NCBI GenBank assembly: GCA_030408505.1
Contig: JAUHQI010000002.1
Span: 34,674-98,673 of the forward strand
Direction of reading: 5' to 3'
Length of the DNA: 64,000 nucleotides
From: Candidatus Sacchlamyda saccharinae
Lineage (GTDB): Bacteria > Chlamydiota > Chlamydiia > Chlamydiales > Rhabdochlamydiaceae
Position numbers and translations under genes: made by a program. Below the pieces are notes generated by a model. The model worked only from the letters and a program-made list of their open reading frames with translations, was not told the origin of the DNA and ran no database searches. How positions within the stretch are numbered: position 1 is the stretch's first letter; each line of letters opens with the position of its first letter. Positions 3,229 through 6,756 of the stretch are shown piece after piece.

Positions 3229-3319
3229 CTAGGTCCCTTACGGGGAAGGATCTTGGAAATCGACGTTGCCATTTGGAGGCGTGTTTTCGATGGGGCTAGG
3301 AGGAGGAATGTCTTTCCGA
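3229..3319 (-). pseudogene. Relic copy of the ftsH 3' end (last ~28 codons plus stop)
   Basis: About 90 nt, near-identical to 4018-4111. The reverse strand reads [25 protein letters not shown], versus the FtsH C-terminus [29 protein letters not shown]. The Gln codon has become TAA. Confidence 0.75.
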
Positions 3320-3393
3320 TTTACTCTACTAAAACCACACTGAATATGTCTTTCGTGACACCATCAAACTCTCGAGCAATTTTAAGCTTCAAA

Positions 3394-3948
3394 CTACCCC
3401 AGCCTTGCAGTCAACCGTTGGGCTATCTCGTCCTGCTGACTCTTAATGTCATTAAACCGAAAATCAGCCTCTATTCTTCCTAAATAGGATTTCAGGTATA
3501 GATAATCGTCGCAAGGTCTGTTCATCCATTGATGAAAATACTTTAAAAAGTACGTATCTTCAAATATCTCGTTTGCAATGTTTCGAGCTTGTTGTTCAGC
3601 CAACTTTTCTGCAGGCACTCTTTTGTTGAAAATCAAAAATTTATGGGGAGTGTTCGCTATACGATAGGAGCTATCTACGACTATTTTAAAATCTAGGAAG
3701 GCGAAAATCCCACCTAAACTCAAGGACACAGCATTAAGATTTATGTAGCTGAAGCCATAAAAAACAATAGAAAAAGAACTAAATATGAAACCTGCGATTG
3801 AAGCAACTAAAAGAGCTGTAGTAATGGCCTTATACTTTAAAGCTCCCATCTTCATTTCTTCCCGAAGAAGCCTAACTTCCCTAGACTCTATAGCCTGCGA
3901 ACTCCGATTTATCGCGCCAGCAGCCAAATTTCTTAATGCATCTAACAT
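3394..3948 (-). CDS. Hypothetical membrane protein with a bilobed hydrophobic domain (Inc-like candidate)
   Basis: 184-aa ORF. It has two adjacent hydrophobic segments (AITTALLVASIAGFIFSSFSIVFYGF / AVSLSLGGIFAFLDFKIVV) separated by a short loop, followed by a soluble C-terminal half. No recognisable enzymatic motif. Confidence 0.5.
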   Translation of the reverse strand: MLDALRNLAAGAINRSSQAIESREVRLLREEMKMGALKYKAITTALLVASIAGFIFSSFSIVFYGFSYINLNAVSLSLGGIFAFLDFKIVVDSSYRIANTPHKFLIFNKRVPAEKLAEQQARNIANEIFEDTYFLKYFHQWMNRPCDDYLYLKSYLGRIEADFRFNDIKSQQDEIAQRLTARLG

Positions 3949-4017
3949 AGCCTAAGGTTCGTCCCGTCCTATTTCGAAAGACATTCTAATGAACCAGATC
4001 TATGATTTCAAGAAAGT

Positions 4018-6756
4018 CTAGGTCCCCTGCGGGGAGGGATCTTGGAAATCGACGTTGCCATTTGGAGGAGTGTTTTCGATGGGGTTTGGAGGAGGAGGAG
4101 GGTCTTTGCGAGCTCTATCGGCATCGCTTTTTACCCTTTCTTTCTTCTTATTCTCATCAAATGTGCCATTGATGATGTCATCGACATCTTGGCGATCGAG
4201 GGTCTCGAACTCCATGAGCATGTCGGTCATCAGCTGAACTTTATCGCGATTATCTTCGATGATCTTAGTCGCTTCTTTGTGGGCAGCGTCCAAGATGCTA
4301 CGTACTTCATCATCGATCTGCTTAGCTGTCTCTTCAGAGTAATTCTTCTCATGCTGAGACATGCCGAGGTATTGCCCTTGCTCAGAACGCTCATCATAGG
4401 CAACAGCACCAAGGGCATCGGTCATCCCCCACTCACAGACCATGCTGCGGACAAGGCGGGTAGCTTGCGAAATATCCATTTGCGCGCCACTAGAAATATC
4501 TCCGATGAAGATCTCCTCTGCCACTCGACCTCCCATAAGGACGGCGAGTTGATCGATGACTTCTTTTTTCCAGTAGCTGAGGCGATTTTTCTTGGGCATG
4601 AAGTGGGTTGCTCCAAGAGATAGGCCTCTAGGTATGATCGTTACCTTATCTACGGTATCACCATGCTCAACAACCAAGCCGACGATGGCATGACCCGATT
4701 CGTGGATAGCAGTTGTCCGCTTCTCTTTATTATCGATTTCTAGGGATCTACGCTCTTTACCATAGCGAACTTTGTCGCATGCTTCGTTGACCTCTGGCTG
4801 GGTGACAGCACTGCGGCCATTTCTAGCTGCAAGTAGAGCTGATTCATTGAGGATATTGGCAAGATCTGCACCAGATGCACCTGGAGTGTTGCGAGCAATG
4901 GTCATTAAGTCAACAGCTGAATCGAGCTTGATCTTGCGAGCGTGGACTTTGAGGATTTCATGACGTCCTTTGATATCGGGAAGCTCCACCACAATCCGGC
5001 GATCAAATCGCCCTGGACGAAGGAGGGCTTTATCGAGCACATCAGGGCGGTTAGTTGCGGCAATGAGGATCACCCCTTCGCTTGTATCAAATCCGTCCAT
5101 CTCTACGAGAAGTTGGTTCAAGGTCTGTTCTCTTTCATCATGTCCACCGCCAACACCACCGCCACGGTGACGCCCTACAGCATCGATCTCATCAATGAAG
5201 ATGATACAGGGGGCTTGTTTACGGGCTTGCTCAAATAGGTCACGGATACGACTAGCACCCACACCAACGAACATTTCAACGAAGTCAGAACCTGAGATTG
5301 AGAAGAATGGGCGGTCCGCCTCGCCAGCTACGGCTTTGGCAATGAGGGTTTTTCCTGTTCCGGGCGCTCCAATGCAGAGTACCCCTTTTGGGATACGCGC
5401 ACCGAGTGCTGTGAATTTGGCGGGGTCTCTCAAGAAATCGACGATTTCAGAAAGCTCTTCTTTAGCTTCGTCACAACCTGCCACATCTTTGAAGGTGACT
5501 TTATTGTTGTCCTTAGAGAGGAGGCGAGCTGGGGATTTTCCAAAGGTCATGGCTCCAGAGCCCATCCCTTTCATCTGCTTGGAAAAGACAAAGTAGAGCA
5601 AAAAGACGACGAGTAATACGGGTAATAGGGTAAGTAGGTAGCCAAAATAATTTGGTGAGGGCTCTTCGCTTTTGAAGGTTTTATCCAGAGCGGTAGTGCG
5701 AGGTTGATCAGGAGCTTTGAAGTCGGTGCTCTGATTAGCAGCAAACTCTTGCCACTCAGAACGGGCTCCTGCAAACCACTGACTATAGGTCTCAGGATCT
5801 TGCTTTTCTAGCTGGCGAGAGGAAAGTTCTTTGTTATTGAAGTACCAAACCACTCCAGCAACCTGCTGGCGAGCTTTATCTAACTGAGAGCTATTGGTGA
5901 TGAGCTCCTCGGAAATTTGTCGGTAGCGGGTAAGGTCTTGCTTATAAGTACGAACAGCGCGCAACTGACTGAGGCGCACCCCATCTTCTACTTGATTCAG
6001 CTCATCGACCATCCCTTGTAGCTGATTGATCGTTGAAGAATAGACTTCGGTTCGATCAGGCATGCTGAAATCTCGCGCTTTGAATACAGACTCTTCCATA
6101 TCCTTGAGCTGTTGTTTCATTGCCTCGTTGCCAATACCCAAATTGGGTGAGCGGAAAGAGCTAATGAGTGTTTTTAACTCGTTGCCATATCGGTCGAGTT
6201 GAGCGGGTGTGCTTGAGGCTACGCGAAAATTACTTTTAATTTCTTTTAGCGACATGACTTGTCTGTCACCTACTGAGCGGACAACTACAGCGTTTTCACT
6301 GCCGGGCATATCATAACTAGAGTTGACGACCACATAACCACGACTGGGGATGGCAATTCCACTAAGATTGACAAACCAATCTGCAGAACTCTCTACACCA
6401 CTTCTCAAACCTTTCACCTCTTTTTCAAGAGAGGCCTGCTCTAAAGTCAACTGGTTGTTTATGTTAAGGAGCTCAAGAAATCGATAGCGCGCTTTAGAAT
6501 CTTCAGAGACGCGGTCCTTGAATTTCCCGCTAAAGGTGACGAGATTGTCATTCAGCGCCGTTTTCTTAGCGGTGTCCTTGTGGACAAGATCGAGATTCAC
6601 CAAGTGCTCGACTTGATGACTAAAAGAGACTTTGCCCACCTTATCTTTATTCATACTCTGAAAAGAATAGAAAATCAGTACGGCGGCTAGAACAATAAGA
6701 AGAAATCCTCCTGGGAGGCCTCTTCGGGGCGGCTTGTTTTTATTATCTTCACTCAT
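4018..6756 (-). CDS. ftsH: ATP-dependent zinc metalloprotease FtsH (long N-terminal periplasmic extension)
   Basis: 912 aa with Walker [10 protein letters not shown], Walker B IIFIDEID, and zinc motif HESGH. The long N-terminal region between two TM segments is as seen in chlamydial FtsH. Confidence 0.95.

Follow-up and report, generated by a model that had tools for sequence, protein, structure and literature searches.

Certain genomic islands integrate at the 3′ ends of tRNA, tmRNA, or protein-coding genes and bring a replacement 3′ end along, so that attL/attR direct repeats result. Target duplications made by DNA transposons, by comparison, are mostly shorter than 10 bp, with 19–26 bp for IS1630 (PMC2853133). 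A third process, "insertion with long target duplication," has been described for restriction-modification genes, its mechanism still unexplained (2000, Gene 259:99; Furuta, Abe and Kobayashi 2010, PMC2853133); it is recognized by direct repeats longer than 30 bp that duplicate the target, an insert of less than 20 kb without a mobile-element gene, and an empty site in a relative (PMC2853133). Finally, homology-facilitated illegitimate recombination (HFIR; PMC3240628) combines one homologous anchor with an illegitimate joint, the earlier work on it having been done in naturally competent bacteria.

Here, we analyze a locus in a 64-kb stretch of DNA (the window) from the environmental chlamydia Candidatus Sacchlamyda saccharinae, in which the gene for a small membrane protein, ORF184, lies between the working 3′ end of ftsH and a decayed second copy of that end. 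The best reading, and one that we consider somewhat likely to be right, is an insertion or rearrangement of the recombination type on the branch of the window species, with a long target duplication and no recombinase gene. Set against the description of long target duplication, the direct repeats are 91 and 94 nt of the ftsH 3′ end, and the insert is 0.7 kb long, contains ORF184 only, and has no transposase or integrase; we found no empty site in a relative, the flanks never being contiguous in relatives with one tail.

The locus occupies the gap between two core genes, pnp and ftsH, whose convergent arrangement is found in most genomes of the family (coordinates throughout are window positions). 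The 3′ part of pnp (polynucleotide phosphorylase; 2–1900, plus strand), with 76–80% identity to pnp of the same genus, is followed by a terminator palindrome (inverted repeat I2; 1911–1948) that is kept in the nearest relative, contig L084, where it matches at 30 of 30 nt and adjoins the pnp stop; Rfam returned only sub-threshold noise for this palindrome. Beyond it lies an accessory gene for an AAA_14/DUF4143 ATPase (1984–3150, minus strand; Pfam match at 9.5e-50), which has paralogues at six places within the window genome, has its best homologue (64%) at a different locus in genome G004, and was not found in the pnp–ftsH gap of any relative examined. Next comes hairpin H (3155–3194, minus strand, with a 12-bp stem at 3159–3190), a terminator-like match that appears in both the minimum-energy and the centroid fold and is possibly the former terminator of the ftsH-side transcription unit. 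Hairpin H occurs once in the window genome and elsewhere, by pattern search and metagenome scan, only on the L084 contig—there, 37 of its 40 nt are identical between flanks that cannot be aligned, and about 50 nt separate it from the pnp terminator, at the place where the window carries the ATPase gene.

All remaining features are on the minus strand. The 3′ flank of the relic (3195–3228) leads into the relic itself (3229–3319), a dead and apparently displaced copy of the final 30 ftsH codons, TAG stop included. A unique spacer of 74 nt (3320–3393), the 3′ end of which is the novel junction, separates the relic from the stop of ORF184 and matches nothing elsewhere in the window genome, nor in L084 or a second close relative, L088. 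ORF184 (3394–3948) encodes 184 aa with a two-helix, or bilobed, membrane hairpin at residues ~41–91, and is preceded by a predicted sigma-70-like promoter (3983–4011; TTGAAA, a 17-nt spacer, and TAGAAT) that begins 6 nt past the ftsH stop. The working ftsH 3′ end, the partner of the relic in the direct-repeat alignment (4018–4111), belongs to an intact ftsH of 912 aa (4018–6756) with AAA, AAA_lid_3, and Peptidase_M41 domains and 93.5% amino-acid identity to that of L084; upstream, the core neighbor tilS (6863–8185) stands in the same order relative to ftsH in both the window and L084.

On the ftsH strand, the segments of 91 nt (relic) and 94 nt (working end) are direct repeats, 789 nt apart. 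A first-pass annotation made from the sequence alone had reported this recurrence, a premature TAA in the relic, and a 6-nt difference in length; the duplicate and the stop codon stand, and the difference is 3 nt. Aligned precisely, as that annotation had proposed, the copies are identical at 83 of 94 columns (E 1.4e-28 for a search of the locus, 4.8e-28 for one of the entire genome), with 8–9 substitutions and one 3-nt indel in a CCT/GGA run. The defects of the relic comprise an in-frame TAA (from CAG), a 3-nt deletion, and P>I and N>S changes. Similarity may extend ~12 nt farther in the 5′ direction, up to a TAGAG common to both copies at the novel junction of the relic, a motif that at 5 nt is too short to exclude chance. 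Similarity probably also extends ~13 nt beyond the stop, after an 11-nt insertion, and includes a TTGA(A/G)A box: by our own reading, in which the relic flank is aligned with what follows the ftsH stop in the window, L084, and L088, the TTGAGA at 3212–3207, part of a promoter-like site at 3212–3184, appears to match the −35 box that follows the working ftsH stop. Nowhere in the window genome does the ftsH tail occur a third time, and ORF184, as the annotation had it, is the single sizeable ORF between the two. We reject an assembly artefact because the copies differ at ~10% of positions and the differences follow a pattern of decay.

That direct repeats flank a single gene might point to insertion of ORF184 by a transposon, with a target-site duplication from a staggered cut. 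Such an origin is hardly credible, since the insert has no transposase and no detectable terminal inverted repeats, the unit has no second copy in the genome, and a duplication of 91 nt is far above the lengths typical of DNA transposons.

The two closest relatives found, the metagenome contigs L084 and L088, both encode ORF184 homologues (39–43% identity) with the same promoter in the same ftsH–pnp gap. In L084, where the interval is fully assembled, there is neither an ftsH-tail relic nor a vestige of one; L088 has no relic in its assembled part, the contig ending 64 nt beyond the homologue. These absences bear on the possibility that the downstream copy is functional, whether as part of the ORF184 3′ UTR, as an RNA element, or as a decoy for a factor that binds the end of the ftsH mRNA. 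The relic does sit between the ORF184 stop and hairpin H, where it would be co-transcribed; however, it is missing from the full gap of L084 despite the homologue there, as well as from the assembled part of L088, its changes look neutral, the relic and ORF184 region has no match in Rfam, and the relic folds no better than shuffled sequence (z = −1.5). A function for this copy is thus very improbable.

To establish the polarity of changes, we set both copies against L088, L084, and genomes G001, G007, and G004. The working ftsH tail carries 2–3 derived changes, all of them synonymous, whereas the relic carries six derived substitutions, three of them damaging, in addition to the indel. Moreover, the relic and the window's own ftsH have derived bases in common, against L084 and L088, which argues that the duplication arose later than the split from these relatives, on the terminal branch of the window species. 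Third-position identity is ~0.9 between the copies, as opposed to 0.78 with L088 and 0.56 with L084, suggesting a duplication that is recent relative to species divergence. The first-pass annotation had taken the duplication to date the acquisition of a candidate effector, a claim that does not survive the comparison: because L084 (over its whole gap) and L088 (over part of it) hold homologues without the ftsH-tail duplicate, the scar would not date the arrival of ORF184. Relatives with the ORF and no duplicate were what the annotation itself had named as grounds for refutation.

Could the relic instead be an ancient scar, dating from when the cassette first entered the shared ancestor of the window species, L084, and L088, repeatedly homogenized here by gene conversion and lost elsewhere? 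The junction of the ftsH stop with the promoter and homologue is identical in the window and L084, and the repeats lie close together in direct orientation, both of which would suit this idea. On the other hand, 91 non-functional nucleotides would have had to outlast the near-saturation of ftsH silent sites (third-position identity of 0.56), gene conversion fails once copies diverge, and L084 retains no vestige; relics with other cargo and other boundaries in two further species of the genus also argue for repeated fresh events. We consider an ancient scar improbable.

The relics in these two other species differ from that of the window in both junctions and cargo. That of G001 is 45 nt long, 93% identical, ends at the stop, and lies 0.4 kb downstream of ftsH, while that of G008 is 104 nt long, 83% identical, corresponds to ftsH nt −219 to −116, and lies 1.25 kb downstream; each matches the ftsH of its own species best. 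No relic was found in four same-genus reference genomes with a fully assembled gap, and 40 genomes of other genera of the family yielded only low-complexity noise. Each of the same-genus genomes that we examined fills the gap with cargo of its own, among which are a YafQ/ParD-like toxin-antitoxin pair, a Schlafen/AlbA_2 ATPase, a protein with collagen repeats, and a number of orphans; across the family, gap length ranges from 518 to more than 6200 nt. The earlier suggestion that ORF184 was inserted beside ftsH by a process that duplicates its target is therefore upheld in part: working and dead tails do bracket one gene, and the process is plausible because the scar of one gene followed by a relic recurs independently in two sister species, but the arrival of the gene is not tied to the scar.

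Recurrence at one gene within a genus, together with a gene-end repeat that flanks foreign DNA and restores the gene, is also the geometry of islands that target 3′ ends, such that the repeats might be attL/attR remnants of an integrase-driven island that supplied a replacement tail to ftsH and later lost its integrase and most of its cargo. Against this, Pfam revealed no integrase or transposase domain in 12 gap ORFs that cover part of the gaps (2 genes of the window and 10 larger ORFs of relatives), and the insert is just 0.7 kb long. Furthermore, the relic junctions differ among the three species (~−91 in the window, −45 in G001, and at or beyond −219 in G008), and hence there is no common crossover core. 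An att remnant is quite improbable on these grounds, and we reject it, along with transposon target-site duplication and a functional relic, on the evidence given for each.

The histories of ORF184 and ftsH appear to disagree: the ftsH tail groups the window with L088, whereas the ORF184 family groups L088 with L084, a conflict that rests on 72 ftsH codons of the 2-kb L088 contig. Likewise, silent-site identity between ORF184 and its L088 homologue, P0009, is 0.40, whereas the ftsH tails of the two lineages reach 0.78. Both observations are consistent with exchange of the cassette, the tree conflict equally with hidden paralogy. Gene order also varies—in L084, ftsH is followed by the cassette and then by genes of 105 and 116 aa, and in L088 by genes of 115 and 196 aa and then by the cassette—and the relic 3′ flank looks like the sequence that follows the ftsH stop in L088, where no cassette intervenes.

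Against our best reading, the cassette may be ancestral here and the relic may stem from a purely local duplication. Specifically, an illegitimate tandem duplication of ~91 nt of the ftsH end, the promoter, ORF184, and 74 nt would have been followed by loss of the second promoter and ORF184, with ORF184 itself inherited vertically and evolving fast. Several observations are in keeping with such a history: homologues with the same promoter were already in the gap of L084 and L088, both tail copies bear derived bases of the window species, the gene orders of L084 and L088 are circularly permuted as tandem duplication and loss would yield, and the 196-aa gene of L088 is internally duplicated. Nevertheless, two events would be needed, with a deletion starting only ~13–20 nt past the relic stop, the genome shows no remnant of a second ORF184, and the low silent-site identity of ORF184 and P0009 relative to the ftsH tail is unexpected under simple vertical descent. 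We regard a local origin as unlikely, though well within consideration.

Under the reading that we prefer, insertion or rearrangement by recombination, ~0.8 kb of DNA, spanning roughly 91–103 nt ahead of the ftsH stop together with the cassette of promoter and ORF184, would have been placed ahead of a second ftsH tail. The relic would then be what used to be the end of ftsH, now displaced, or else a copy of it, left by a recent rearrangement. The upstream tail, which completes an essential ftsH, would remain under selection, and the downstream tail would be free to decay, acquiring its stop codon, 3-nt deletion, and missense changes. Most likely, recombination would have been anchored in ftsH, with the illegitimate second joint falling inside the resident ftsH tail; a joint of this kind would represent HFIR or, equivalently, a recombinase-less insertion with long target duplication. 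The setting is the pnp–ftsH gap, a hypervariable slot in which this genus keeps accessory and orphan genes. We infer both the recombination mechanism and the identity of the resident copy. The state before the event is likewise reconstructed, because no empty-site genome was found among relatives, that is, one in which the ftsH stop, relic flank, and hairpin H are contiguous; the metagenome scan for hairpin H returned L084 only. To our knowledge, neither natural DNA uptake nor recombination during co-infection has been documented for the window organism.

ORF184 itself appears to be a real gene with its own predicted promoter. Identity is higher at second (0.66) than at third (0.40) codon positions, as fits coding sequence, of the 40 nt with which the spacer after the ftsH stop begins, about 82% are kept in L084 (versus 56% at ftsH third codon positions), and the promoter element also occurs upstream of P0009 in L088. 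Genome-typical codon usage is weak (0.02, versus 0.25 ± 0.08 for long genes), and the ribosome-binding site is weaker than in the homologues. These homologues (P0002, P0003, and P0005–P0009) define a small, fast-evolving family of 130–200 aa with two transmembrane helices. A full HMMER scan of 1.8 billion representative proteins uncovered six true homologues, where a word-indexed search had recovered ORF184 alone; P0002 and P0009 come from contigs whose gene order is chlamydial, and the remaining protein-search matches carry no taxonomy. All members that could be placed were thus from chlamydial genomes or from contigs of this kind. In a genome search confined to the phylum, profiles detected weak family members in 20 of the 399 other chlamydial genomes scored, and ORF184 is absent from all same-genus reference genomes. 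A membrane protein adjoining ftsH in G006 was considered as a relative and rejected, as it has no homology. Searches against Pfam (no family at E ≤ 0.1), NCBIfam (only a sub-threshold chance match, at 17.5 bits against a cut-off of 43), and the PDB (no relative) were negative, and a single-sequence AlphaFold2 model was all-helical and poor (mean pLDDT 56, pTM 0.25).

Hydrophobicity (Kyte-Doolittle) peaks at residues 46–64 and 73–91 of ORF184, with a dip between and no further hydrophobic segment. The first-pass annotation had called this bilobed domain the sole feature of the protein, which is too strong, given that the family shares a conserved N-terminal block, a motif just past the second helix, and a C-terminal helix. 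[quoted passage not shown] 2011, PMC3048545). Like Inc proteins (Dehoux et al. 2011, PMC3048545; Lutter et al. 2012, PMC3290821), ORF184 is small and fast-evolving, with ~40 N-terminal residues without a signal peptide, two transmembrane helices joined by a loop of ~6 residues, and a helical C-terminal domain thereafter. Unlike them, it has no sequence match to any described Inc family—curated models in Pfam and NCBIfam gave no significant match—and the N-terminal 30 residues are conserved within its family, which is atypical for type III signals. The window genome encodes the SctV/FHIPEP type III export gate, and ~46 of its ~1600 ORFs pass a crude bilobed screen. IncD–G are small, as is ORF184, and chlamydial host-interaction genes tend to occupy hypervariable slots. 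It is the architecture of ORF184, then, that fits Inc and type III candidacy; secretion to the inclusion membrane is conceivable for this candidate, at rather less than even confidence.

More tentatively, the ftsH 3′ end might be a recurrent landing site in the genus for recombinase-less single-gene cassettes, each duplicating a long and variable piece of the tail. Candidate inclusion-membrane effectors that evolve fast might then arise and be exchanged in this slot, their deeply diverged alleles shuffled between lineages.

The locus would provide a clean case from nature, with three occurrences in a single genus, of insertion or rearrangement that proceeds without a recombinase and leaves an essential gene with its end duplicated. 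It also brings to light a previously unannotated family of small two-helix membrane proteins with a conserved promoter, in a hypervariable slot between two core genes, and it offers a caution—a scar of this kind dates the last rearrangement rather than the arrival of the gene that it brackets.

How, then, does the locus compare with the described systems? The events in the three species here left repeats of different lengths (45, 91, and 104 nt), as insertion with long target duplication does; the cargo, however, is a small membrane protein rather than a restriction-modification system, and the cargo family is present in the nearest relative with no duplication beside it. The locus resembles 3′-end islands in that a gene-end repeat brackets foreign DNA, the target is intact, and ftsH is reused as a landing site, but differs from them in that the scanned gap ORFs contain no integrase, the junctions have no common core, and the inserts are single genes of 0.4–1.3 kb. 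HFIR usually deletes or replaces resident DNA and leaves no duplicate, whereas here the joint would have to fall inside the resident ftsH tail. On the other hand, HFIR accounts for a gene end that arrives with foreign DNA and for a displaced resident end with no need for a recombinase, and the locus is like it in having a highly conserved essential gene as the anchor and may be like it in the short shared TAGAG at the novel joint.

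On the minus strand, tilS (8185-6863) and ftsH (6756-4018) are followed by a 184-aa open reading frame (ORF184, 3948-3394), a 74-nt spacer, a 91-nt decayed copy of the ftsH tail (the relic, 3319-3229), a hairpin, and the gene for a DUF4143 AAA+ ATPase (3150-1984), after which comes the terminator of pnp, itself on the plus strand (2-1900) and convergent with the ftsH-side genes. The relic repeats, in direct orientation, the final 94 nt of ftsH (the working tail, 4018-4111): of 94 aligned columns 83 are identical, and the copies differ by 8-9 substitutions and a single 3-nt indel. 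E is 1.4e-28 within the locus; across the entire 1.73-Mb genome, which contains no third copy, it is 4.8e-28. A first-pass annotation had described an ftsH 3' end duplicated around a single ORF, with a premature TAA in the duplicate; both points are confirmed—read in the ftsH frame, a CAG has become TAA—and the length difference between copies is corrected from 6 to 3 nt. By eye, similarity runs about 13 nt beyond the stop, after an 11-nt insertion, and includes a TTGA(A/G)A box; a promoter scan flags this box at corresponding sites behind the two stops. The proline-rich linker near the C-terminus of ftsH varies, but across the genus and family almost every ftsH protein closes with PQ and two further residues (window 4018-4040, loci L044-L083), making PQGT within the genus and mostly PQQI elsewhere in the family. 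Because this extreme C-terminus is conserved, insertions here may have to restore the ftsH tail.

A search of every species' ftsH-pnp gap for a copy of that species' own ftsH end gave two further relics in the genus. That of G001 measures 45 nt (93% identical), ends at the stop, and lies 0.4 kb downstream of ftsH beyond one opposite-strand ORF, while that of G008 measures 104 nt (83% identical, E 3e-25), spans ftsH nt -219 to -116, and lies 1.25 kb downstream beyond a collagen-repeat gene. Each of the three relics is closest to its own species' ftsH, which implies separate and fairly young duplication events; no genus member carries tail copies outside the ftsH locus, and the same test in 40 family genomes from other genera returned only noise. 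Junctions differ among the three. That the repeats are integrase att sites is unlikely, given that they have no common core and that no Pfam recombinase domain was found in twelve scanned gap ORFs (two of the window and ten of relatives); target duplication by a transposon is likewise improbable, since it too would lack a recombinase among those ORFs, and the window's interval has no terminal inverted repeats.

The slot itself is hypervariable in content. Convergent ftsH and pnp within ~6.5 kb occur at 25 of the 40 family loci examined, with gaps from 518 to >6200 nt, and the cargo, including several orphans, differs in every species of the genus: a YafQ/ParD-like toxin-antitoxin pair in G001, a Schlafen AlbA_2/HATPase_c_4 ATPase gene in G002, a collagen-repeat protein in G008, and in G003 three tandem paralogous ORFs (338-371 aa) for signal-peptide proteins ending in QFDF/RIDF that may be outer-membrane barrels. 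In G009, an 85-nt near-perfect palindrome (87%) directly follows the ftsH stop (locus L009, ~1198-1282). The window's ATPase family occupies six places in this genome, one of them a broken copy at G000:C2:208506-209352; the best homologue of the window's ATPase (64%) is found in G004, at another locus.

ORF184 is a genuine gene, and not entirely an orphan. Pfam, NCBIfam and PDB contain no relative, and a word-indexed protein search returned only ORF184 itself, yet HMMER run in full against 1.8 billion representative proteins recovered six true homologues of 140-173 aa: P0002 (39% identity, E 1.5e-20), P0003 and P0005-P0008. All members begin with a conserved N-terminal block and share a bilobed hydrophobic domain, followed directly after its second helix by D..aA.kgYQiA..p..F..FN and later by a C-terminal helix, eTy.LKh.h.fvfDRYW. 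Identity to homologues is higher at second than at third codon positions (0.66 against 0.40), a pattern indicating coding sequence. When 399 other chlamydial genomes were scored with a profile, 20 of them, from several families, had weak members (130-200 aa) that keep this layout, in one case as tandem paralogues, and the other same-genus genomes had none; this is an unannotated chlamydial family. ORF184 stands out from a typical resident gene in its GC content (39%, against 48% for ftsH), its low genome-typical codon score, and a ribosome-binding site that, judged from the sequences, appears weaker than those of its homologues. The hydrophobic domain noted at first pass is present (residues ~41-91) and has the architecture by which Dehoux et al. 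2011 (PMC3048545) define Inc proteins. The genome encodes a type III export gate, but a crude screen for bilobed domains picks out about 46 of its roughly 1600 ORFs, and ORF184 matches none of the described Inc families. On architecture we therefore propose ORF184 only tentatively as a candidate Inc protein, an identity we consider possible rather than probable.

The genes for P0002 and for a relative of it, P0009, lie on two metagenome contigs, L084 and L088, the nearest relatives found. L084 shares with the window the order CPBP protease, PAP2, lptG, lptF, tilS, ftsH (ftsH protein identity 93.5%), and its fully assembled interval reads ftsH, promoter spacer, P0002, genes for 105- and 116-aa membrane proteins, hairpin, pnp terminator and pnp, with neither ATPase gene nor relic. 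L088, whose ftsH end is 90% identical in DNA, reads ftsH, a 115-aa gene, a 196-aa gene, the same promoter, P0009 and contig end, with no relic in its assembled part. The spacer joins the ftsH stop at the same place in L084 and the window; the predicted sigma-70-like promoter (TTGAAA, 17-nt spacer, TAGAAT) begins 6 nt past the stop and is ~82% conserved over 40 nt with the nearest relative, against 56% at ftsH third codon positions. The family and its promoter thus occupy the slot in three lineages, and the duplicate only in the window. The interpretation in the first-pass annotation is supported in part: the scar is real and recurs in the genus, but its use to date the acquisition of a candidate effector fails, as homologues fill the same slot with no relic seen, an outcome that the annotation itself had named as refuting it. 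Absence of the relic where the promoter-gene cassette is present also makes a functional relic unlikely, as do the lack of an Rfam match and of any unusual fold.

The hairpin (window 3155-3194; L084 9606-9645) is 37/40 identical between the two, with a 12-bp stem kept although the surrounding intergenic DNA is unalignable; it occurs once in the genome, has no T-run behind it, and could be a terminator or protein-binding site. Relative to L084, the stretch from this hairpin to the pnp terminator differs by a bare insertion of just the ATPase gene, whose start side has only ~8 nt of flank and which apparently has its own hairpin (1950-1977). The gaps of L084 (8537-9483) and L088 (282-1395) also hold a second family, which the window's gap lacks: small membrane proteins, rich in Cys, that have two hydrophobic segments and share the motif CxxHCRP.xSDRV (105, 116 and 115 aa, plus the internally duplicated 196-aa form).

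With L088 and L084 as outgroups, six substitutions and the deletion are derived in the relic, against two or three synonymous changes in the working tail, and both copies also have derived bases in common that the outgroups lack. Together these place the duplication on this species' terminal branch. On these alignments the cassette family would have been in the slot long before the duplication, unless an old relic has been rejuvenated by gene conversion. The ftsH tail and the ORF184-family gene disagree on relationships. Third-position identity of the tail (72 codons) is 0.78 for window and L088, 0.56 for window and L084, and 0.61 for L088 and L084, whereas the family gene gives 0.40, 0.46 and 0.59 (protein 43%, 39% and 72%): the window's tail is nearest L088, while the two contigs' family genes are nearest each other. 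At silent sites, ORF184 and P0009 differ much more than the ftsH ends beside them do, a gap that faster protein evolution cannot account for. What remains is that a highly divergent cassette allele was imported, that old tandem paralogues were lost differentially, or that the ftsH end itself was exchanged, and all three imply recombination or duplication at this site; with a sample as small as one 2-kb contig, the incongruence is supporting evidence and not proof.

The data are best fitted by a recombination anchored at one end by homology in ftsH and closed at the other by an illegitimate joint within the tail of the resident ftsH, where TAGAG is shared. The working tail and cassette would have been imported from a close relative already bearing an L084-type junction, and the relic, its flank and the hairpin would mark where the ftsH transcription unit used to end. 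In the main rival, a tandem duplication arose entirely locally and a deletion followed; the circularly permuted gene order in the gaps of L084 and L088 speaks for it. An empty site, which would decide between the two, was not found by pattern search or by a metagenome scan for the hairpin. A comparable class of footprint, insertion with long target duplication at restriction-modification genes, is described in a paper of 2000 (Gene 259:99) and by Furuta et al. 2010 (PMC2853133), and the ftsH-tail scar is of a known but poorly understood kind.
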